64,000 nt of DNA from an uncultured Phycisphaerales bacterium (lineage in GTDB: Bacteria; Planctomycetota; Phycisphaerae; Tepidisphaerales; Tepidisphaeraceae): contig CAVWVQ010000003.1 in NCBI GenBank assembly GCA_963758525.1, positions 3,712,001-3,776,000 on the forward strand, written 5' to 3'. The notes under the pieces are model-generated. The model did no database searches. It was given only the letters and a program-made list of their open reading frames with translations, and was not told the origin of the DNA. The stretch's first letter is position 1. Every line of letters begins with the position of its first letter. Shown one piece after another: positions 45,311 to 55,414 of this stretch. Made by a program: the position numbers and the translations under genes.

Positions 45311-45994
45311 TCAGAATTTTTCACGCGGGCACGGCAGCGCAATCACCGAATCTCCCGCGATCGCGAAGATGCGGCGGGCCTGCTGTGCCGGCATGTGGCA
45401 TCCACCGGTAAACGAACCAAACGCGGGCAATATTCCCACCTGTTCGTCAAAGACAAAGCACGGGACGCGCACGCTGGAGCCGTCAAAATCGCGCAACGCG
45501 CAGACGGGATGGATGTGGCCGCCCAACAGGGGCCGGCAATTGGGAATGTCGGGGAAATGCGAAAGGAACAATCCGTCGACCTCCAGAGGACCGGCCACTT
45601 CCTCAAACTTCCATTCGTCAGGGCAGGCGCCCGCGCTGCGGTCATGATTGCCGCGAATCAGCAGCATCTCGATATTGCCATGCGATCGCCGCCACTGGCA
45701 AATGGCTTCCATGATCTGCGGATGGCGCCCGCTGCGTGCATGGAGAAAGTCGCCAAGGATGATCATCCGGCGGGCCCCGGTGAGTGCCAGCACGCGCGAA
45801 AGACGCTCCAGATCTTTGCGGCTGCTCCCGGCGGGCACCGGAACTCCCGCGCTGCGGAAAGCCGCGCCTTTGCCCAGATGAACGTCCGTGACGATCACGC
45901 TTTGCCGCGCCGGCCACCAGATCGCGGGACCGGCGAGCAGCTCAAAGCGGTGCGACGCAAAATCCACCGCGATTCTCGACTTCTCTCGGATCAT
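45311..45994 (-). CDS. pdeM: Ligase-associated DNA damage response endonuclease (metallophosphoesterase)
   Basis: DVHLGK, LGDFLH, GNHD, GHIHP, PAFGSFTGG. Confidence 0.9.
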   Translation of the reverse strand: MIREKSRIAVDFASHRFELLAGPAIWWPARQSVIVTDVHLGKGAAFRSAGVPVPAGSSRKDLERLSRVLALTGARRMIILGDFLHARSGRHPQIMEAICQWRRSHGNIEMLLIRGNHDRSAGACPDEWKFEEVAGPLEVDGLFLSHFPDIPNCRPLLGGHIHPVCALRDFDGSSVRVPCFVFDEQVGILPAFGSFTGGCHMPAQQARRIFAIAGDSVIALPCPREKF

Positions 45995-48562
45995 CCGTTG
46001 AATCCTGTTTCATCGCCGCCGCCTCCAGCTCGCGGGCCAGGCGCTCAATCCTCTGCGTCGGGTTCTCCGATCGCAACTGCTGCGATGCGATGCGCTCGGC
46101 AAACAGCGGAAACGCCAGCGGAGTCACCTTCGCGGGCGAAGTCATGACGAGTTGCTCAGCAGCCAGTTGCAGCAGGGCCGACTGAAGACGGGTGAATTCG
46201 AGTTGACGCGTCAGCACTTCCTGCCGAGCCTGAATCAGCAGAAGATTCTCCGGGTCGAATTCCTTGAAGACATCATAGAACAACCCGCTGGAGGCTTGCA
46301 GCGCCCTGACGCTTCGCGGCGCGCCGGGCCGGGTGGGAACCAGCAGCCCCGCGATGCGCGCGATCTCGCGGAAGTGCCGCCGCGCCGATTCGCCCGTGTT
46401 GACGCATTCGGAAACATCCTCCAGCAGATTCGCCGGCGAGAGAACCTCGCGCCAATCCGGCTCTGATTCTGCCAGGGGCCGCTGCGAAAGCAGTTCGAGT
46501 CCGTAATCGTTAAATGTCGCGGTGATGGGAGAAAGACGGCGGCGCGCAAAACGATGCGTGATCAGCGCCGCAAGTCCTTCGTGAACAAGACGTCCCTGAA
46601 ACGGATACAAAAAGTGATGGTGCCCGTCGCGGCTGGTGACGGATTCGACCAGAAGCTGTGCCCGTCGCGGAATGACCGACCATCGCTGCTGCAGTTCAAG
46701 GATGGGGCGAACGTGCTGCATTTCCGCGTCGACAAAGCGATGCTCGGCTGCTTCGTCGAGCCGAACGCGAACCGACTCGGCCAGGCTTCCCGACATAGCC
46801 ATCTTCCCGCCCAACCATTTCGGGACGGTCCCGCGCTTTGACTTGGAGGGTTTCACCTGCAGCGTCATCTCGTGCATCCGGACCGTTTGCAGCGTTCGGC
46901 CCGCGAAGTTGAACAGGTCGCCGGGGCGCAGCCTGCTGGCAAAAGATTCCTCCACGCTGCCCAGATATTTCCCACGGACGAACTTCACGTTGACCGCGCC
47001 GTCGGCGGTGATCGTCCCGATATTCATGCGATGCATGCGCGCCAGTTGCGGCGATGCAGCGACCCACTTGCCATTTTCCTCAATGATCCGAGCGAAACGC
47101 GGGTAGGCCGCCAGGCTCTGCCCGCCGCGTCTGGCAAAGTCCATGACCCACTGCCAGTGCAGATCAGTCAGAGCCGCAAAAGCGTTCGTCGATCGCACCT
47201 CGGCAAGAAGCTCGCGGTCATCAAATCCGCCGCCCGCGGCCACTGTCACCACATGTTGCGCCAGAACATCCAGCGCCAGCGTTACCGGCTCGCGCAGTTC
47301 GACCGCGCGGCGATCCACCGCGCGTCGCACCGCTGAAAACTCAACCAGCTCAAACGCCTGTGTCGGCACGCAAACAATCTTGCTCGTCGCGCCCGGCTGA
47401 TGTCCGCTGCGCCCGGCCCGCTGAATCGCGCGGGCGATATTCTTGGGGCTTCCAATCTGAATGACCTGATCAACCGGCCAGAAATCCACGCCCAGATCGA
47501 GGCTCGAAGTGCAGACCACCGCGCGCAGTTGTCCTTCACGCAGCATCTGCTCGACGCTCGATCGAAGCTTGCGGTCCAGCGAGCCATGGTGCAACGCGAT
47601 CTTTCCCAGCCAGTCCGGCGCGCCTGCATCACTGCGCGGAACCACATCTCGCTCTGCGACCTTGTGTTGGTAAAGACCAGCGTGCTGCCGGCCGACTCGA
47701 TCAACTGGATCACAGGTTCGACCATCCGCGTCCCAAGGTGGCCGGCCCAGGGAAACCGCTCGATCCGCGCTGGGAGAACGCTGTCGACAAAGATCGGCTT
47801 TGTGTCTGGCGCAATAATGGATCTGGCGTTTGGGGCTGCGACAGGGCCGACCAGCGCCGCAAGCGCTTCGTGTCGATTGGCGATCGTGGCGCTCAAACCC
47901 CAGGTGCGCGTCGCCGGCGAAAAGCGGCGCAGCCTCGCCAGCGCCAGCTCGGCTTGCACGCCGCGTTTGGTGCCGATCAGTTCGTGCCATTCATCGACGA
48001 TCGCACAGCGCAGCGTTTGCAGTCGTGCCGGCGAATCGTCGTACGAAAGCAGCAATGAAGCGCTTTCCGGCGTAGTGACGAGAATCGTCGGAAGCCGCTC
48101 CTTCTGACGCCGGCGGAGCGCGGCAGATGTATCTGATGTCCGCAGCTCCACGCTCCAGGGAAGTTGCAGTCCCTCCACCGCCAATTGCAATGCGCCAACC
48201 GTGTCAGCGGCAAGCGCCCGCAGCGGCGTGATCCAGATCATTGTGAGCGGCGCGGTGCGCGGCACTCTACGCCGACTTCTCGCGTCTCCTCTTTCCCCCT
48301 CCCCCGGAGTACCAGGGGAGGGGATTTGAGTGCCAGCCGCTCTCAGCGTCGACTCGGAGGATGACGCGTCGAGGAACTCGATCATCGGCCCCAGCGCCGC
48401 GGCCAATGTTTTGCCAATGCCCGTCGGCGCTTGAATCAATCCGTCGCGCCCGGCGAGATATTCATTCCAAGTGTCCCGCTGAAAATCGAAGGGCACCCTG
48501 CCTTGCGCAGCAAACCAGTGCTCGACCTGCGCAGTTCCAGAGACGGCCGCCCGCTTGCTCAT
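45942..48562 (-). CDS. Ligase-associated Lhr-like DEXH helicase; frameshift near 47620
   Basis: PTGIGKT, TPLRALA, DEWH, GLSAT, HHGSLD, TSSLDLGVD, QRAGRSGH. Confidence 0.92.
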
Positions 48563-50175
48563 CGCGCCTCCACGGTCTGCAGTAACGCAAACACCGATTG
48601 CAGCGTGTCAGCCTCTCGCGGCTTCTTGTCCTGACGCATGCGGAGGATTCGCGGGAATCGCAACGCAACACCCGACTTGTGCCGGTCGGATCGACGGATC
48701 GCTTCAAAGCCGATCTCGAAGACGAGTCGGGGCTCGATGATATGCACAGGTCCGAATCGGGCGGTGGTGTATCTTCGCGCGAAGCGATCGACACGGACGA
48801 TCTCGTCATCGGTGAGCCCGCTGTAGGCCTTGGCGACAGTGACCAGCTCATCCCCGGACCAAACGCCAAATGAATAATCGGTCAGCAGCCCCGCCCGCCG
48901 GCCGCGTCCAGGCTCGGCGGCGATGAGGACGGCGTCGAGCGTGAACGGTTCAATCTTCAATTTCCACCACAACCCGGCCGGCCGGCCCGCGCGATACGTC
49001 GAGTCGGCGCGTTTCAGCATCACACCTTCAACGCCACGCTCGCGCGACGCGTCGATCAGCGCTTGAAGCTCATCCCATTCCTGGAAATCGATGATCGGAG
49101 ACAGCGCAATGCACGAATCGCCGGGCACCGCCGCGAGGCGCGCTGCCAGCGCACCGCGCCGGAATTCGAGCGGATCTCGGCGAAGATCGCGGCTGTCGAG
49201 CTCAAGGAGATCGAAGGCCACGAATCGAACCGGGACGTCAGGCCAGAAGCTCGGCTCGTGCTGCTTGCGATTGAGGCGCGTCTGCAGATCAGAAAAAGCC
49301 ATCGGCCGATTGTCAGCAGCGTTCCATCCGACAATCTCTCCATCAATCACAATCCCGTCAGGCAGGTCGGATGCGCACTGAAGAATTTCGGGAAACGCTC
49401 CCCCGATCATTTCATCGCCGCGCGACCAGAGCGCGGTCTTGCCTTGTCGGCGGACGATCTGGGCGCGAATGCCGTCCCATTTCCACTCGATGAGCCAATC
49501 CGTCCGCGACCCCAGCGTTTGAGGCGCGGCATCCAGGGCATGGGCGAGCATGAAGGGATATGGCAGACACGCATCGCCGCAGGGCTCGGCATCGGCGGGG
49601 GAGAGCAGCCGCGCGAACGAGTGCTCGCCGGGCGTCCAGTTTCCCGCCAGCCGATGGGCGATCACCGCCGGCTCCACTTCCGCTAGCTCGGCGATTGCGC
49701 GAACGAGAAGCTGCTTTGAAACTCCGACGCGGAAGCTCCCTCCCAGCAGCTTGTGAAAGACCAGCCGCTGATCGACATCCAGCCGTAGCCAGGCTTGCGC
49801 CATGGTTTCCTGCTGTGCGGACGGTGACATGTGCGGCAGGGGGCGGACGGTCCTTTCGATCAGCTCATGCAGCGGCGGCGGCGATTCGCCTTCGGCTGCG
49901 CTGCCGGTGAGGAGCGCAAGTGTCTCCGAAAGATCGCCGACGAGCTGATGGCACTCGTCGACGAGCCAGGGGGGATGGCCGCTCGCGTCTGCGGCCCACC
50001 GCCGCAGCAATTTGCCCGCAATCCGCCTGCCGATCTTTCGGCCCGAAAGCAGGAACACCGCCCAGGCCGCATCGGGGGCGGGAGCGCTGCGGAAGTAAGC
50101 GACCAGTGCCTCGACCTTGTCCGCGGTGCGTGTGGTCTGGTCCAACGCAAGGTACAGATCCGTAAAGCGCTTCAC
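48559..50175 (-). CDS. ATP-dependent DNA ligase
   Basis: EWKWDGIR adenylation motif, DGEI, EGVMLK, LRFPR. Confidence 0.95.
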   Translation of the reverse strand: MKRFTDLYLALDQTTRTADKVEALVAYFRSAPAPDAAWAVFLLSGRKIGRRIAGKLLRRWAADASGHPPWLVDECHQLVGDLSETLALLTGSAAEGESPPPLHELIERTVRPLPHMSPSAQQETMAQAWLRLDVDQRLVFHKLLGGSFRVGVSKQLLVRAIAELAEVEPAVIAHRLAGNWTPGEHSFARLLSPADAEPCGDACLPYPFMLAHALDAAPQTLGSRTDWLIEWKWDGIRAQIVRRQGKTALWSRGDEMIGGAFPEILQCASDLPDGIVIDGEIVGWNAADNRPMAFSDLQTRLNRKQHEPSFWPDVPVRFVAFDLLELDSRDLRRDPLEFRRGALAARLAAVPGDSCIALSPIIDFQEWDELQALIDASRERGVEGVMLKRADSTYRAGRPAGLWWKLKIEPFTLDAVLIAAEPGRGRRAGLLTDYSFGVWSGDELVTVAKAYSGLTDDEIVRVDRFARRYTTARFGPVHIIEPRLVFEIGFEAIRRSDRHKSGVALRFPRILRMRQDKKPREADTLQSVFALLQTVEAR

Positions 50176-51248
50176 GAATCTTCCCTCCGCGCAAATTCCA
50201 ACTCGGCGCCGGCCGGCAACGCTGCATCTTCTTCGCCCGAAGCGGGATCGACTTCTCCCTCTTCACCCTTGAAGCGTGTTTTGAAGGCAGCGGCGTCCAT
50301 CCCGCGCTCCCGCAGCAGGCGCACGAGCGGATCGGTGAAGCCGTGCGTGGCGATGACATGCTCCGCGCCGGTTTCCGCGATCGTCGAAAGCAGTTGCGGA
50401 AAGTCCGCATGATCCGAAAGCACAAATCCGCGATCTGCGCCTCCCCGCCGACGGAACCCGCGCACCTGCATCCAGCCGGATGCGACGCCCGTCGCAACCG
50501 GCGCAAATTTCCGCAGCCAGACCGAATGGAGCGCCGAGGGCGGCGCGATGACCATGGCACGGCCGCGATGCACTTTGGCGGCCTCCGCGCTCGCGTAGTG
50601 CGTCGGCGGCAGCTCGACGCCGGTTTGACGATAGGCGTTGGTGACCGCATCGACCGCGCCATGCAGGAGGATCGGGCCGATCGACGGATCCAGCCCGCCC
50701 AGCAGTCGCTCCGCTTTGCCGAGTGAGTAAGCGAACAGCGCGCTGGTCCGCCCGGCGGCGATATTATCCCGCCACCATTGGTTGACATCCTCCATCACGA
50801 GCTTCGGGTCGTTCCAATGGAAAATCGGCAGGCCGAACGTGCACTCGGTGATGAACGTGTGACAGCGAACCAGCTCAAAGCCCCGGCAGGTGACATCCGC
50901 ATGGCGTTTGTAGTCGCCGGTAAAAACCCAGACCTCGCCGCGATGCTCGATACGCACCTGCGCCGAGCCGAGGACATGGCCCGCGGGGTGGAGCGAGACA
51001 TGCACGCCGTTGATATCAATAACTTGCTGATAATGCAGCGCGTCGACGACGATGTCGCTGCCGAGACGCTGGCGAAGCAGTGCCGCGCCGTCGGCGGGGC
51101 AGAGGTATCGCTGCGAGCCGCGGCGAGCGTGGTCGGAGTGCGCGTGGGTGACGATGTTGCGTGGGACGTCGCCCCAGGCGTCTATGTAAAAATCGCCGGC
51201 CGAGCAGAAGAGTCCTCGACCGGTGTTGACGATCAGCGGTTCCGACAT
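50172..51248 (-). CDS. Ligase-associated DNA damage response exonuclease (MBL fold)
   Basis: THAHSDH, AGHVLGSA, TECTFGLP, SDHAD, THG. Confidence 0.93.
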   Translation of the reverse strand: MSEPLIVNTGRGLFCSAGDFYIDAWGDVPRNIVTHAHSDHARRGSQRYLCPADGAALLRQRLGSDIVVDALHYQQVIDINGVHVSLHPAGHVLGSAQVRIEHRGEVWVFTGDYKRHADVTCRGFELVRCHTFITECTFGLPIFHWNDPKLVMEDVNQWWRDNIAAGRTSALFAYSLGKAERLLGGLDPSIGPILLHGAVDAVTNAYRQTGVELPPTHYASAEAAKVHRGRAMVIAPPSALHSVWLRKFAPVATGVASGWMQVRGFRRRGGADRGFVLSDHADFPQLLSTIAETGAEHVIATHGFTDPLVRLLRERGMDAAAFKTRFKGEEGEVDPASGEEDAALPAGAELEFARREDS

Positions 51249-51308
51249 CGCCGAATCTTAGGCAGTTCGGCGCGCTCGGGGTGCGCGCGGTCGCTGCTGC
51301 GCGCTGCT

Positions 51309-51466
51309 CCCTCTCCCGGTACGCCGGGAGAGGGCTGGGGTGAGGGTGATTTGGAGAGCGAGAGGTCTCTGTTTGATGGGAAGAGCGATCATCGCCCGAG
51401 ACGAGAGTCCTTTCACGTTCGAAATCACCCTCACCCCAACCCTCTCCCGGAGTACCGGGAGAGGGG
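51309..51466. repeat. REP doublet CCCTCACCCC..CCCTCTCCCGG(AGTA)CCGGGAGAGGG
   Basis: Inverted pair; further copies at 40788-40817 and inside the helicase at 48294-48324. Confidence 0.88.
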
Positions 51467-51659
51467 GCAGGACGCGGCGTTGGTCGTGCATCGGTGCAGG
51501 CGTCGGCCCTCAACAGAAACCGGAGAGTTCTATATGTAGGGCGGGATTCATCCCGCCGCTTCTTTTGTCTACGGCAAAATCGTGGCGGGATGAATCCCGC
51601 CCTACATTCGAGAATGTTCTTCACGCAAAGATTTTCTTCTTGATTTTATAATTTTTCAT

Positions 51660-51685
51660 GCAACAATTCAGGTCTAATCGGCGTT
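51660..51685 (+). promoter_or_regulatory. Candidate ECF-sigma promoter of the tRNA array
   Basis: GCAAC-N17-CGTT at the end of an AT-rich stretch (51630-51660). Confidence 0.45.
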
Positions 51686-51703
51686 ATGTCGATGGAGAGA
51701 CCT

Positions 51704-51787
51704 ATGCGGCACTTGAGTTCATCTAAGTTTAACGGTTGCCAACCAGAGCGACTCGCATCAAACCGAGCCGAACTGGTCAACTTATAA
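51704..51787 (+). CDS. Putative 27-aa leader peptide MRHLSSSKFNGCQPERLASNRAELVNL
   Basis: GGAGAG RBS; rich in A/T-ending codons; stop codon overlaps the first of several alternative hairpins. Confidence 0.5.
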   Translation: MRHLSSSKFNGCQPERLASNRAELVNL

Positions 51788-51856
51788 CTCCTCGCCGCCG
51801 CCGGCCGGGAGTTCTTCCCGGTCGAAAGTAATATTTCATAGAACCGGGAAGCAATT

Positions 51857-51945
51857 GGGCGTTCAGCTCATTTTGCTGGAACACCTCTCTTACAAAGAGG
51901 AGGTCCGTGATTTGAGCGGCCGTTGGCCCGGGAATCTCGCGGTTC
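51857..51945 (+). pseudogene. tRNA-Val(TAC)-like sequence with disrupted T arm and 3' end
   Basis: GGGCGTT, D arm, and CCTCT-CTTACAA-AGAGG anticodon arm intact; no TTCRA loop or complementary acceptor strand. Confidence 0.6.
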
Positions 51946-52010
51946 CGAGGCGTATTGCGCGGCCAGGTGATTGTATTCACTATGGACGCATTACAAAGGC
52001 AGCGGTCCGC

Positions 52011-52081
52011 GCACTCGTAGCTCAATGCAGAGTCGCCGGCTCTTAACCGGTCGGGTGCAGGTTCAAATCCTGCCGGGTGCA
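52011..52081 (+). tRNA. tRNA-Lys(CTT)
   Basis: GCACTCG/CGGGTGC acceptor, GCCGG-CTCTTAA-CCGGT, TTCAAAT loop; no CCA. Confidence 0.88.
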
Positions 52082-52102
52082 TGAATTGAGAAACTATGGA
52101 AC

Positions 52103-52176
52103 GGTTCAGTAGCCCAACTGGCAGAGGCGCCTGACTCAGAATCAGGATGGTGCAGGTTCGAATCCTGCCTGGACCA
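52103..52176 (+). tRNA. tRNA-Leu(CAG) with short variable loop
   Basis: CCTGA-CTCAGAA-TCAGG, 5-nt variable region, A73. Confidence 0.85.
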
Positions 52177-52190
52177 TGAAGCGGTACAAC

Positions 52191-52263
52191 GTCGCGGCAG
52201 CTCGATTGGACGAGCACGGCCCTCCGAAGGCCATGGCTGAAGGTTCGAATCCTTCCCGTGACA
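52191..52263 (+). tRNA. tRNA-Arg(CCG)
   Basis: GTCGCGG/CCGTGAC acceptor, loop CTCCGAA, GAAGG-TTCGAAT-CCTTC. Confidence 0.88.
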
Positions 52264-52277
52264 TGGAAAAGAACATT

Positions 52278-52349
52278 GGGCCCGTCGTCCAACGGTAAGA
52301 CTCCTGGCCTGCAACCAGGAAATGAGGGTTCAACTCCCTCCGGGGTCCA
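52278..52349 (+). tRNA. tRNA-Ala(TGC), atypical (C33; one extra G in the 3' acceptor strand)
   Basis: CCTGG-CCTGCAA-CCAGG; G3:U70 and A73 if one G is bulged. Confidence 0.7.
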
Positions 52350-52352
52350 TGA

Positions 52353-52428
52353 GTGACATGCGGCATTGTTCTCCTGCGGCGGTCTCAAGAACCGCGCAGG
52401 TGTGGGTTCGACTCCCACCCGTGGCACT
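52353..52428 (+). ncRNA. tRNA-like RNA lacking a D arm, with extended anticodon arm (loop CTCAAGA)
   Basis: Perfect T arm GTGGG-TTCGACT-CCCAC; CCTGC(G)GCGGT/ACCGC-GCAGG stem; imperfect GTGACATG/CGTGGCAC closing stem. Confidence 0.65.
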
Positions 52429-52442
52429 GAAAGGAGTTTATC

Positions 52443-52757
52443 ATGTTCGTAAACAACTCGGCCAGACCACACAAGGAGACCATGTATCTGATGTGTCAGC
52501 TCTCCAAGCCGGTGGAGGGGGGCGTTGCCCGGATGACGTCCTGGATCCGCCAGGCCGTCGCCAAACCCGGGGCGGTGTTGGGCCGTTTGGAAGACACAGA
52601 GACGGGTGTCTTCGAGACAGGTTGGCAAGTTGACTCAGCCAGTGGACCCGCTCTCCCGGAGTCGCTTTTGTTAAAGCGGTCTCACAAGAAGGTGTTCGCA
52701 TCCATCAAAGACGAAGAGGCGGCTCGAGAACATGTACGTCAAAGCAAGAATCGCTAA
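52443..52757 (+). CDS. Hypothetical 104-aa protein embedded in the tRNA array
   Basis: Strong AAGGAG RBS; pattern C-x-L...TSWI...A-x-x-G...GW-x-V. Confidence 0.75.
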   Translation: MFVNNSARPHKETMYLMCQLSKPVEGGVARMTSWIRQAVAKPGAVLGRLEDTETGVFETGWQVDSASGPALPESLLLKRSHKKVFASIKDEEAAREHVRQSKNR

Positions 52758-52839
52758 ATCACATTGATCAGGCGGTTGCACCAGAGCGACGTGGATCAGG
52801 AGCGTCGGCAACGATGGAGGGTTTGTCATGTGATCTCCT

Positions 52840-52922
52840 GGAGGGTTGGCCGAATGGTATGGCACCCGTCTCGAAAACGGGCAAACCGAAAGGTGATGGG
52901 GGTTCGAATCCCTCACCCTCCT
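52840..52922 (+). tRNA. tRNA-Ser(CGA)
   Basis: GGAGGGT/ACCCTCC acceptor, CCCGT-CTCGAAA-ACGGG, long variable arm. Confidence 0.92.
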
Positions 52923-52968
52923 CTGACTCGGTGGTCGAGCAGGAACGGTCGAGCACTGGAAAAGATCC

Positions 52969-53053
52969 GGAGGGTTGGCGGAGCGGTCTATCGCGTCGCG
53001 TTGCTAGCGCGAAAAGCACTCGTGCTTCGAAGGTTCGAATCCTTCACCCTCCT
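52969..53053 (+). tRNA. tRNA-Ser(GCT)
   Basis: GGAGGGT/ACCCTCC acceptor, TCGCG-TTGCTAG-CGCGA, variable arm AAGCAC/GTGCTT. Confidence 0.92.
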
Positions 53054-53130
53054 TTTAGGGTTCAGGGTGTCAGGGTTCAGGGTTCAGTGAGGCGTTGTTG
53101 CCGCTGGTGCCCAACCTGACGCCAGGAGTC

Positions 53131-53142
53131 GTTCTTTGACAA
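53131..53142 (+). promoter_or_regulatory. boxA-like antitermination element
   Basis: GTTCTTTGACAA resembles rrn boxA (GCTCTTTAACAA). Confidence 0.6.
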
Positions 53143-53283
53143 TTCGATGCATCAAATGCAGGTGCGGAATTGCAAATTGAGGACTGCAAATTGCAAATTG
53201 CAAATTGTGGGGATGGGGAGGCTCCACGAATTTGCGATGGGCTTGAGCGTCGGCAGCACGCAATACTGCTCTCCGCAGCACTT

Positions 53284-53355
53284 GTGGACTTAGCTCAGCG
53301 GTAGAGCGGAGGCTTGAAGAGCCTCGCGTCCCTGGTTCAATCCCAGGAGTCCACA
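53284..53355 (+). tRNA. tRNA-Phe(GAA)
   Basis: GTGGACT/AGTCCAC acceptor, GAGGC-TTGAAGA-GCCTC. Confidence 0.92.
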
Positions 53356-53364
53356 TTCGGAGGT

Positions 53365-53480
53365 TTAGGGTTCCGGGAGGGTTCAGGGTTCAGGGTTCAG
53401 GGTGTCAGGGTGGAGGAACGGAAAATGTCTTTTTGCTGAACCCTGAACCCTGAACCCTGAACCCTAAATCCTGAACCCTA
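53365..53480. repeat. Inverted blocks of the heptamer GGGTTCA/TGAACCC
   Basis: Tandem heptamers; same unit at 10848-10875, 32624-32655 and 53057-53087. Confidence 0.9.
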
Positions 53481-53484
53481 AGAA

Positions 53485-53556
53485 GCAGTGATAACTCAGT
53501 CGGCAGAGTGCCGGTCTTCCAAACCGGAGACGTGGGTTCGATTCCCCCTCACTGCA
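53485..53556 (+). tRNA. tRNA-Gly(TCC)
   Basis: GCAGTGA/TCACTGC acceptor, CCGGT-CTTCCAA-ACCGG; one T-stem mismatch; A73. Confidence 0.88.
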
Positions 53557-53638
53557 ATGCGCGGCGCACAATCGCCGCTATTAGCGGGTGTCCGAAGGGC
53601 ACCGTCACGCGAGCAAGTGCATGCGGACATGCACGCTT

Positions 53639-53709
53639 CTGGGGATAGTTCAACGGCAGAACGTCCGGATGTGGCCCGGAATGCGGAGGTTCAACTCCTT
53701 CTCCCCGGA
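53639..53709 (+). tRNA. tRNA-His(GTG) without genomic G-1/C73
   Basis: CTGGGGA/TCCCCGG acceptor, TCCGG-ATGTGGC-CCGGA; T at -1 and A at 73. Confidence 0.82.
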
Positions 53710-53728
53710 CTGATTCCAAACGTGAGAC

Positions 53729-53801
53729 TCAGGGATAGTTCAATTGGCAGAACGTCCGACTCTGACTCGGAAAGTTGAAGGTTCGAGTCCTTCTCCCTGG
53801 G
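53729..53801 (+). tRNA. tRNA-Gln(CTG)
   Basis: TCAGGGA/TCCCTGG acceptor, TCCGA-CTCTGAC-TCGGA. Confidence 0.9.
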
Positions 53802-53802
53802 C

Positions 53803-53874
53803 TGAGTCGTAGTTCAACTGGTAGCAATGCCGGTCTTTGAAGCCGGAGATCGTGGTTCAAATCCACGCGGCTCA
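53803..53874 (+). tRNA. tRNA-Gln(TTG)
   Basis: TGAGTCG/CGGCTCA acceptor, CCGGT-CTTTGAA-GCCGG. Confidence 0.88.
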
Positions 53875-53950
53875 ATCCGCGCCGGCGCGAGAAGGCAGCG
53901 GAGAAGAAATGGAACAAGAGGAAAGGTGGTTCATCGGATCCCGCGTCCAT

Positions 53951-54023
53951 ACCCATGTAGCTCAACTGGTAGAGTGCGCGACTGTTAATCGCGTCGTTGG
54001 TGGTTCGAATCCACCCGTGGGTG
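53951..54023 (+). tRNA. tRNA-Asn(GTT)
   Basis: ACCCATG/CGTGGGT acceptor, CGCGA-CTGTTAA-TCGCG, G73. Confidence 0.92.
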
Positions 54024-54147
54024 CTGGCTTCGCCAGAGCAGGTGAACCGTTGAACGGGCGAACAGGAGACGGAAAAAACTTGGCCTCGTCTCCTGATCCG
54101 CTGCTCACCTTTCTCCTGTTCTCGTTCGCGATGCATCGCGCAGCGCC

Positions 54148-54220
54148 GCTCCCGTCGTCCAACGGACAGGATGCCCGGCCTTCAACCGGATGATGATGGG
54201 TTCGATTCCCTCCGGGAGCA
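54148..54220 (+). tRNA. tRNA-Glu(TTC), atypical (C33; bulge in T stem)
   Basis: GCTCCCG/CGGGAGC acceptor, loop CCTTCAA, TTCGATT loop. Confidence 0.78.
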
Positions 54221-54317
54221 TTACTCTTTGTGGCGCAGGCTTCGAGCCTGCTCCGCTCGGCAGGCTGGAAGCCTGCACCACAAAATAGGAAGGGTGATCG
54301 GGCGCCTGATTGTTGTT

Positions 54318-54391
54318 CAGCGTGTGGCGCAGTTTGGCAGCGCACGTGCCTCGGGCGCACGGGGTCGAAGGTTCGAATCCTTCCACGCTGA
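54318..54391 (+). tRNA. tRNA-Pro(CGG)
   Basis: CAGCGTG/CACGCTG acceptor, CGTGC-CTCGGGC-GCACG, A73. Confidence 0.93.
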
Positions 54392-54403
54392 TTGAAACAG
54401 ATT

Positions 54404-54477
54404 GAGGAGGTGGCCGAGCGGTTCAAGGCCTGGGCCTGCAAAGCCCGTGTTCGCTGGTTCGAATCCAGTCCTCCTTT
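54404..54477 (+). tRNA. tRNA-Cys(GCA)
   Basis: GAGGAGG/CCTCCTT acceptor, TGGGC-CTGCAAA-GCCCG, U73. Confidence 0.9.
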
Positions 54478-54580
54478 TCCTGATGTTGCAATTATTCACA
54501 AACCTGGCATTCCTCGAAGGGATATATATAAGAGACGAGCAAAGGCTCGTCCCAATGAGTGTGTACTGCACGGAGGTGCA

Positions 54581-54802
54581 ATGATGTGGCAGCCCCAGCT
54601 GAATGATCGCGTACGATTGCTCCACGATGTCCCGGATCTGCTGTTGCACAGCGGCGACGTGGGTGTGGTAAAGAGCGTTTGGTTTGCGCCCCAAACGGCG
54701 TACGAAGTCGAATTCGAGCAGCCGAAGTCCGCTTATCGGGTTCGCAAAATTCTGCAGCCCGCGGAAGTCGAGCCTGACGCGGCGCCCCGTCAACAAAACT
54801 GA
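54581..54802 (+). CDS. DUF4926-like small protein
   Basis: GGAGG RBS; DRVRLLHDVP...GDVGVV...AYEVEF. Confidence 0.75.
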   Translation: MMWQPQLNDRVRLLHDVPDLLLHSGDVGVVKSVWFAPQTAYEVEFEQPKSAYRVRKILQPAEVEPDAAPRQQN

Positions 54803-54952
54803 GCGGGCCCTCTGATCGGTTGAGCTCGCTCTCCGTCGGCAGTGAATTCACTCCGGAAGCGCCCCTGCGAAAATCGATCAAGCCAGGCGGGGATGGCTCC
54901 TCAGGTGAAAGCGGGGAACCGACGTCGTCGCAGCCCGTTGCTTTGCAGAACG

Positions 54953-55414
54953 TCACCACCAGTAATTGAACATCAGCTCGCGCGACCATGCGGGCTGCGT
55001 CACCGCGCCTCTGGGCAAAAACTCCTCCATCACCGGCTTGATGTCCACCACCGGCGACCCGTCGATCGCGTCGAGTCCCGCGACTGTCAGCGTTTTTCCC
55101 TTGAGGCTCACGACCCGCGCTACGCAGGTTCCCAGTCGATTTGGCCGGTCTTTACCGCGCTGCACAAAGATGCCCACCCGCGGCCATTGTTCGTTACCGC
55201 GCGGGTGCCGGGCGCCACGCACGATGTCGCTCTCGTCGACGCGGTGAAAATGATAGATGACTTCAACGTGCGAAAAAGCCTCGATGCCGTCCAGCGCTTC
55301 GTCGCCGAACGCGTCTGACAGCTCGATCTTCGACACGACATCGCCCCAGAGATCGTCGCTCAAGTCCGTCCGTGTGCTGCTGACGTAGCCAATCGGCTCG
55401 ACTGCGATCATCAT
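54953..55414 (-). CDS. TsaA/TrmO (YaeB)-like SAM-binding tRNA methyltransferase domain
   Basis: PIGYV, FSHV, GIF...RPNRLG, GLDAIDGSPVVDIKP. Confidence 0.88.
   Translation of the reverse strand: MMIAVEPIGYVSSTRTDLSDDLWGDVVSKIELSDAFGDEALDGIEAFSHVEVIYHFHRVDESDIVRGARHPRGNEQWPRVGIFVQRGKDRPNRLGTCVARVVSLKGKTLTVAGLDAIDGSPVVDIKPVMEEFLPRGAVTQPAWSRELMFNYWW

Follow-up and report, generated by a model that had tools for sequence, protein, structure and literature searches.

Can a short open reading frame (ORF) placed ahead of a block of spare tRNA genes list the amino acids that the block serves, and is the block switched on by what a ribosome meets on that list? The question is raised by a stretch of 64,000 nucleotides from an uncultured Phycisphaerales bacterium (contig CAVWVQ010000003.1, positions 3,712,001 to 3,776,000), referred to as the window in the following, in which a 27-codon leader ORF (51704..51787, plus strand) precedes an array of tRNA genes whose isotypes, according to comparative tests, it covers. 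According to the part of PMC8421152 considered here, little is known of how bacteria regulate individual tRNA genes. Candidate purposes of spare tRNA arrays comprise tRNA damage, starvation, antibiotics and anti-defence functions. As a leader of this kind would state what its array responds to, the purpose of a spare array could be tested one amino acid at a time. The one long tRNA array (L-array) whose regulation has been worked out uses a repressor, whereas here, if the reading given below is true, attenuation would act on the tRNA genes themselves and with up to 20 inputs.

The leader ORF and the array behind it

Translation of 51704-51787 (+) gives MRHLSSSKFNGCQPERLASNRAELVNL*, in which 14 amino acids occur besides the start Met; D, I, T, W and Y as well as an internal M are absent from MRHLSSSKFNGCQPERLASNRAELVNL, and the only Val codon stands at the third place before the stop. 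The start codon is preceded by a Shine-Dalgarno-like GGAGAG (51694..51699, +), of which the GGAG lies 6 nt ahead of the ATG, by a small 5′ hairpin ahead of this ribosome-binding site (51679..51691, +) that is predicted by folding and has similar counterparts by eye in homologs, and by a putative sigma70-like promoter, TTGATT-16 nt-AACAAT (51640..51667, +), with 8/12 consensus matches. A promoter scan of the leader region in the window called none, this candidate scoring below the cut-off; the best promoter-like sites of 85 deduplicated homologs read TTG... and AATAAT and mostly lie 34-40 nt ahead of the start. A Shine-Dalgarno-like tetramer accompanies 115 of 139 unique homologous ORFs, a count that is partly circular since the Shine-Dalgarno score helped to choose the starts. 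An Rfam search of positions 51200-55000 returned only tRNAs at gathering score and no T-box or other cis-element.

Behind the leader, 15 tRNAs of 13 isotypes are called by ARAGORN (52011-54477). On the plus strand these are Lys(CTT), Leu(CAG; with a short variable arm), Arg(CCG) and Ala(TGC) at 52011..52348, Ser(CGA), Ser(GCT), Phe(GAA) and Gly(TCC) at 52840..53556, and Gln(CTG), Gln(TTG), Asn(GTT), Glu(TTC), Pro(CGG) and Cys(GCA) at 53729..54477, all recognised by Rfam as well, together with a tRNA that carries a His anticodon (GTG) on a Gln(CTG)-type body (53639..53710, +; ARAGORN and array profiles). Two damaged genes were detected with profiles built from homologous arrays, namely a relic of tRNA-Val(TAC) in the presumed ancestral first slot (about 51857..51929, +; 26 bits with the array Val profile), for which neither ARAGORN nor Rfam makes a call, and a tRNA-Leu(CAA) with a degenerate D arm (about 52360..52427, +; 40 bits with the array Leu(CAA) profile). 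G-1/C73 features take part in His identity; canonical array His genes possess them, and the GTG-anticodon tRNA at 53639-53710 does not. The same variant on a Gln body is present in a further array (L159), the leader of which has five His codons. The Leu tRNAs of the arrays, in the window (52103-52176) as in homologs, lack a long variable arm and measure 74 nt, compared with 83 nt for the housekeeping Leu(CAG). Within the array there is also a small ORF of 91-104 aa (52443..52757, +), for which a family search matched no family; it has a close relative inside array L159 (L159:1537-1878) and possibly a similar one in L077.

According to the first-pass annotation of this DNA, the leader uses exactly the 14 amino acids served by the array. 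The match holds only with the Val relic counted, because the ARAGORN calls cover 13 isotypes, and with intact genes only it fails. Among 26 random residues the chance of exactly this 14-set amounts to 2.7e-5 with the composition of long ORFs of the genome and to 3.7e-5 with the pooled composition of leaders, and that of zero residues outside the set to 0.0018; these single-locus figures are post hoc, and the real test is covariation across loci. The accompanying claim that codons match the anticodons of the array stood for part of the leader, with 12 of 26 post-start codons exact and 3 of 26 by wobble, whereas 11 of 26 are unread by array tRNAs under simple wobble rules and the match across homologs is weak.

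Conservation, range and cargo

Homologs were searched with a pattern made of three short RNA segments behind the ORF (segments 1-3, see below), which holds no information on a stop, an ORF or segment 4. It matched 33 genome loci and 114 metagenome loci, with 0 matches in the viral sequences scanned. Titles of 30 of the 33 genome loci read Tepidisphaeraceae, Tepidisphaerales, Phycisphaerales or Phycisphaerae, and two of the 33 lie outside these titles and have neither ORF nor tRNAs. The remaining one of the 33 is a contig of 2.6 kb under the title Undibacter sp. (L060), which has a full leader with array, either by misbinning or by transfer. Of 140 other genomes in the window's family, 48 gave matches at E<=1e-6 to a model of the 3′ element. 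In 150 genomes of the phylum the best non-self match of the covariance model reached 26 bits, and three matches of this kind (L314-L316) proved on inspection to be without ORF and without tRNA.

Altogether there were 154 motif matches, 141 of which have at least 150 nt upstream; a stop lies within 6 nt in 135, and in 133 of the 141 an ORF of 25-41 codons ends 0-4 nt ahead of segment 1 (duplicates included in both counts). By the same rule, 73 of 78 unique anchors have an ORF, compared to a mean of 3.6 and a maximum of 13 at 78 shifted anchors, so that the upstream ORF, whose position the first-pass annotation had proposed to follow across homologous arrays, is indeed conserved.

Genes for EF-Tu (L053:6748-7941), an OB-fold RNA ligase (L077:8525-9547), a TROVE/Ro60-like protein (L052:4289-6007) and RtcB (L032:6678-8186) are located inside or just behind leader-headed tRNA blocks. 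The leader family marks small or degenerate tRNA units along with associated repair genes. A common unnamed protein recurs downstream of leader-headed units (L052:6207-6893, L061:7022-7510, L119:668-1501) and has no Pfam or NCBIfam match. Some leaders have no tRNA behind them at all (L069, L083, L085, L128 and L129), which suggests loss of the tRNAs or reuse of the leader for protein genes; that of L128 is Gln-rich and lies ahead of a TIM-barrel gene.

RNA segments and the proposed switch

Past the ORF, on the plus strand, segment 1 (CTCCTCGCC, 51788..51796) begins with the first base behind the stop, where a terminating ribosome would cover it. Segment 2 (GGCCGGGAG, 51803..51811) is predicted to pair with either 1 or 3, segment 3 (CTTCCCGG, 51814..51821) with either 2 or 4, and segment 4 (CCGGGAAG, 51844..51851) is the complement of segment 3 and is conserved though it lies outside the search pattern. 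The gap between the stop and segment 1 measures 0-2 nt for 129 of 133 ORFs. The predicted energies in the window are -12.4, -17.4 and -15.8 kcal/mol for the pairings 1:2, 2:3 and 3:4, respectively. When a ribosome was placed at the stop in the folding model, 2:3 formed at 91 of 91 loci; when it was placed 4-20 codons upstream on the full leader, 1:2 formed at 88-90 of 91. On short nascent RNA with the ribosome upstream, equilibrium folding still favours 2:3 over 1:2 in 58-73 of 91 loci, and because 2:3 wins there the ON state needs helix 1:2 to be kinetically trapped.

The leader is probably an attenuator read by the ribosome, through which the spare tRNA genes would be transcribed upon slow decoding of any of the amino acids covered. 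A ribosome reaching the stop would mask segment 1, so that segment 2 pairs with segment 3 and a G-poor portion of the 3-4 spacer (51830..51843, +) stays exposed as a candidate Rho-loading or pause stretch; a ribosome held at least 4 codons upstream would leave 1:2 intact, and segment 3 would pair with segment 4. Helix 1:2 would act as a kinetically trapped pause hairpin, and 2:3 would represent the OFF state, in which transcription may end by a non-canonical, probably Rho-assisted route.

No U-tract stands behind either hairpin, the 8 nt that follow containing on average 1.6 and 2.0 T at 90 loci, and a terminator scan of the window called none at the leader helices. The helix cores among convincing homologs consist of invariant pairs with no compensatory change; a strong covariation signal in one alignment (A2) was rejected as it came mostly from low-scoring, likely spurious matches. 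Owing to the lack of both a U-tract and core covariation, we infer the terminator, likely Rho, and the polarity. The 3-4 spacer has 8% G and 24% C across homologs but is short, and Rho is encoded in the genome by one match over the family cut-off, which together suggest a Rho-assisted OFF state like that of mgtA. Two rho-like genes are found in all (G000:C3:4358004-4359239 and 3994036-3995112), one over and one under the cut-off. The geometry of RNA polymerase pausing behind a hairpin base is the basis for a count of nucleotide 11 past the base of 1:2, which is a pyrimidine in 82 of 91 loci. In a homologous locus (L055), contigs of RNA runs span leader and array, but X1 spans the flanks at similar depth as well, and the contigs are without ends or strand information.

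The lack of a U-tract behind either hairpin would also agree with a sensor of the same kind that works post-transcriptionally, the choice of helix setting the processing or decay of the tRNA precursor, as would the fact that 3:4 forms a long closed hairpin directly ahead of the first tRNA slot. Such a mode of action is nevertheless unlikely in view of the tight placement of segment 1 behind the stop, a segment order like that of a co-transcriptional switch, the presence of Rho and the G-poor spacer.

As to the direction of the attenuator, the geometry, the cargo, the spare nature of the tRNAs and the stress induction of the Anabaena array all point to stalling as the ON signal, and RtcB, EF-Tu, RNA ligase and TROVE/Ro60-like cargo fits a stress-ON polarity. 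The opposite, an array that is ON with the leader fully translated and OFF when the ribosome stalls, would make 3:4 the terminator, in keeping with trp-type attenuators, where III:IV is described as the terminator and II:III as the antiterminator (PMC1183508, as far as its text was available), and neither hairpin has a U-tract here to decide. This arrangement is improbable, however, since the genes carried along (RtcB, RNA ligase, TROVE-like) serve repair and the response to stress, since the related Anabaena L-array is described in the available text as induced by translational stress (PMC8421152), and since one codon per amino acid for up to 20 types suits the detection of any single shortage.

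Leader composition and array content

What a stall-activated attenuator would sense can be read from the composition of the leaders, the ORFs having been called blind to residues. The discovery set comprised 126 loci with ORF and tRNAs, which gave 52 complete clusters and, after removal of ORFs at least 70% identical, 32 loci, 21 of them partial arrays with at most 15 isotypes. The held-out set started from 60 model matches, of which 22 were dropped as duplicates and 14 remained after the same filters, nine being partial.

Isotypes of a partial array are represented by one or more codons in the leader of that array in 115 of 116 cases in the discovery set (shuffled, 88.8±4.4) and in 36 of 36 in the held-out set (27.3±2.5), that is, in 151 of 152 for all 30 deduplicated partial arrays (115.8±4.9), the permutations overstating the independence of loci because of kinship. 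Likewise, the share of leader residues that falls within the own tRNA set is 0.431 for all 30, compared with 0.283±0.015 in shuffles (0.480 versus 0.313 in the discovery and 0.320 versus 0.220 in the held-out set). The coverage test is null in frames +1 and +2, and coverage persists with ARAGORN-only tRNA calls (133/134), with size-binned shuffles (151 versus 122.0±5.0) and without Arg (131/132 versus 95.7, maximum 113). For each of the 20 amino acids the mean leader count is higher where the tRNA is present, and the leaders of the 14 full arrays hold a mean of 18.7 distinct amino acids in 26-34 codons, compared with 14.6±0.4. The covariation of leader composition with array content that the first-pass annotation had proposed to test is therefore found in both sets, and its reading of the ORF as a multi-amino-acid sensor is, by virtue of the fixed ORF position and this covariation, well supported; we regard the sensor role as very likely.

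The word 'exactly', in turn, does not survive as a rule, since leaders cover and enrich the amino acids of their array and do not exclude others: of 448 amino-acid slots that partial arrays lack, the leaders still use 300, the own tRNA set ranks first in only 15 of 30 partial arrays, and several units of 1-3 tRNAs, mostly Arg, have broad leaders. These leftovers, as well as the near-all-20 leaders of full arrays, which resemble the M. smegmatis whiB7 upstream ORF (uORF) as described in the accessible part of PMC10274678, would be expected of a general sensor of translation stress (antibiotics, ribosome damage), the composition being a loose by-product of an ancestral all-20 leader. Drift, however, is not expected to enrich the retained isotypes, and leaders with nine Gln before two Gln tRNAs, nine Ala before one Ala tRNA and seven Thr before Thr, along with the nearly complete coverage of retained isotypes while lost amino acids decay, make a sensor of this general kind improbable. 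Contrasts with the nearest full-array leader, for which there are only 7 distinct comparators, show a depletion of the lost amino acids in 20 of 20 cases. A tree of the non-coding flanks has low resolution, with good support for 9 of its 43 branches; on it the partial arrays do not cluster, with 13 changes versus 12.8 in shuffles and at least 3 forced, and this suggests that they may have arisen by repeated reductions.

At the level of codons the correspondence is weaker. Matching to anticodons was tested and set aside as a rule, for 413 of 592 leader codons are readable by own-array anticodons, which slightly exceeds the shuffles (397.8±5.9) and does not exceed the 420 expected from genome codon usage, an approximate reference taken from long ORFs in all frames. 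The GC3 of leaders is 0.575 as against 0.728 for the genome, and CCA makes up 30 of 64 leader Pro codons, while the arrays mostly have Pro(CGG). The leader-array match is thus mostly per amino acid and only weakly per anticodon, and because leader codons are often unmatched, as with Pro CCA, many sensed codons are not directly rescuable by the array. The leader pN/pS of 0.66 over 46 close pairs is as expected if selection acts on composition and not on order; 5 of 7 indels are in frame. The signal would be a shortage of charged, intact tRNA for a given amino acid, through damage, loss or under-charging, and not of one isoacceptor, and ribosome-stalling drugs would be further triggers. That stalling switches the array on, and that cleaved tRNA is among the triggers, as stated in the first-pass annotation, is conjecture at this stage, a canonical terminator having been looked for and not found.

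Three leader-headed units in one genome

By blastn, two further copies of the flanks of the window leader occur in the genome, and all three leader copies were confirmed by the covariance model (74.5, 72 and 65 bits), so that three natural variants in one genome can serve as internal controls. The leader of the unit near G000:C3 44390 (minus strand) precedes Thr(CGT), Tyr and Trp tRNAs and has 29 codons with seven T, three Y and one W. In the unit near 3599750 the leader has a GTG start, two I, one D, one internal M, one K and six R, and is followed by a degenerate Ile(GAT), Arg(ACG), Arg(TCT), Lys(TTT), Asp, Met(CAT) and rtcB. The T, W, Y, D, I and internal M of these two sister blocks are all absent from the window leader. 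Full arrays of relatives have the order Val-Ile-Arg-Lys-Arg-Lys-Leu-Arg-Ala-Leu-Leu-Ser-Ser-Asp in their first half, continued by Phe-Gly-Gly-Thr-Met-Gln-Gln-Asn-Glu-Glu-Pro-Tyr-Trp-Cys-His, and the three blocks represent complementary subsets in this order, the His-anticodon gene being the exception. From this we infer that one ancestral array may have been triplicated and then partitioned, each leader following its own block. The ARAGORN-called anticodons of the three blocks are duplicated elsewhere in the genome in 23 of 23 cases; the tRNAs are thus spare, or supernumerary.

A comparable division of labour is seen in a genome of the same genus (G506), where the leader of a 19-isotype array without Val contains exactly those 19 amino acids and that of a solo Val tRNA has five Val, and in a further array (L064), which an additional leader in its interior divides in two, the ORF of this leader having codons for all six isotypes that follow. 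That the match is due to chance or linkage and the ORF is not regulatory is very improbable and refuted by comparative sequence tests, since, even if the single-locus match is post hoc and needs the damaged Val and atypical His genes, the fixed ORF at nearly all anchors, the held-out replication, the null frames and the contrasts between paralogs within one genome all speak against it, unless the rule for calling ORFs, which was blind to residues, should prove to bias their composition.

Judged by these sequence comparisons, the leader is a real, conserved and composition-coded element of spare tRNA blocks. On balance we favour a self-indexing, modular tRNA backup, in which the leader would list the amino acids served and re-evolve whenever a block is split or pruned, and in which failure of decoding would be sensed for each amino acid and only the matching block, with RtcB, RNA ligase or Ro60-like repair genes, would be turned on via a non-canonical, Rho-type attenuator. 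The same self-indexing logic appears to recur in another family of the class, although the leader there is unrelated in sequence; in that family, full arrays (L317-L320, in G142, G163, G234 and G246) stand behind a 52-56-codon ORF containing all 20 amino acids in 4 of 45 genomes; there the uORF is followed by a different hairpin and a T-rich tract, and as the genomes are 79-90% alike they amount to about one independent case. Such a leader would make a small and reprogrammable sensor for the supply of aminoacyl-tRNA.

Comparison with known systems

Multivalent leader-peptide attenuators are those of ilvGMEDA and pheST. With the trp and his attenuators, as far as described in the accessible text of PMC1183508, the present leader shares a uORF followed by four segments with mutually exclusive helices, which are predicted here, and regulatory codons that match the downstream function, the uORF here having a ribosome-binding site at a fixed position. 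In contrast, the regulatory codons of trp and his lie in region I (PMC1183508), so that a stalled ribosome masks region 1, a feature absent here, where the four segments are all past the stop; they form repeated runs of 1-3 amino acids, as against up to 20 amino acids in the leaders described here; and III:IV is an intrinsic terminator (PMC1183508), none of which was found here. The cargo, too, differs in consisting of tRNA genes.

Closest in sensing is the uORF attenuator of mycobacterial whiB7/wblC, equally a short uORF, whose amino-acid content sets which starvation and shortages are sensed and at which stalling leads to read-through, according to the portion of PMC10274678 at hand; the folding model predicts the same here. 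The M. smegmatis uORF contains nearly all 20 amino acids, similar to the full arrays and compared to 14 in the window unit. The whiB7 uORF differs, in the text available, in controlling a transcription factor and not tRNA genes, without a gene-by-gene match to the cargo, and in having a terminator and antiterminator (PMC10274678), whereas no U-tract terminator was found here; this comparison is by description and not by sequence. With the Rho attenuators mgtL/mgtA and corL/corA, finished uORF translation restructures the leader and termination is favoured without an intrinsic terminator (PMC12360218, in the part available), as would hold here if termination depends on Rho; these leaders, however, are described as sensing Mg2+ through one codon type and as controlling transporters.

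As regards the cargo, the L-arrays, among them the Anabaena trn operon, are likewise supernumerary long tRNA arrays and are listed for Planctomycetes (accessible text of PMC8421152 and PMC10272220), and their tRNAs duplicate housekeeping anticodons, here in 23/23 cases. The Anabaena trn operon is stress-induced with rtcB co-regulated, but by a DNA-binding repressor, TrcR, at the promoter (PMC8421152, as far as available). The strings 'leader' and 'attenuat' are absent from PMC8421152, PMC10272220 and PMC4758250, as is 'tRNA gene' from PMC2965389, and a literature search, which covered main texts and few subscription papers, returned no leader-peptide attenuation of tRNA genes.

Surroundings of the array in the window

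Palindromic or heptamer-repeat inserts with a REP-like look are scattered between and around the tRNA genes (51310-51465, 51530-51610, 53065-53090, 53370-53470 and 54230-54285). A repeat-like resemblance by eye between the leader and 52775-52835 was dropped, as blastn found none. Divergent from the array, on the minus strand (45311-51248), an ordinary ligase-associated gene run codes for a metallo-beta-lactamase-fold protein, an ATP-dependent DNA ligase, an Lhr-like helicase, which apparently spans two ORFs, and a metallophosphoesterase. Past the array (54584-55414) follow a DUF4926 gene and, on the opposite strand, a TrmO-like tRNA methyltransferase.
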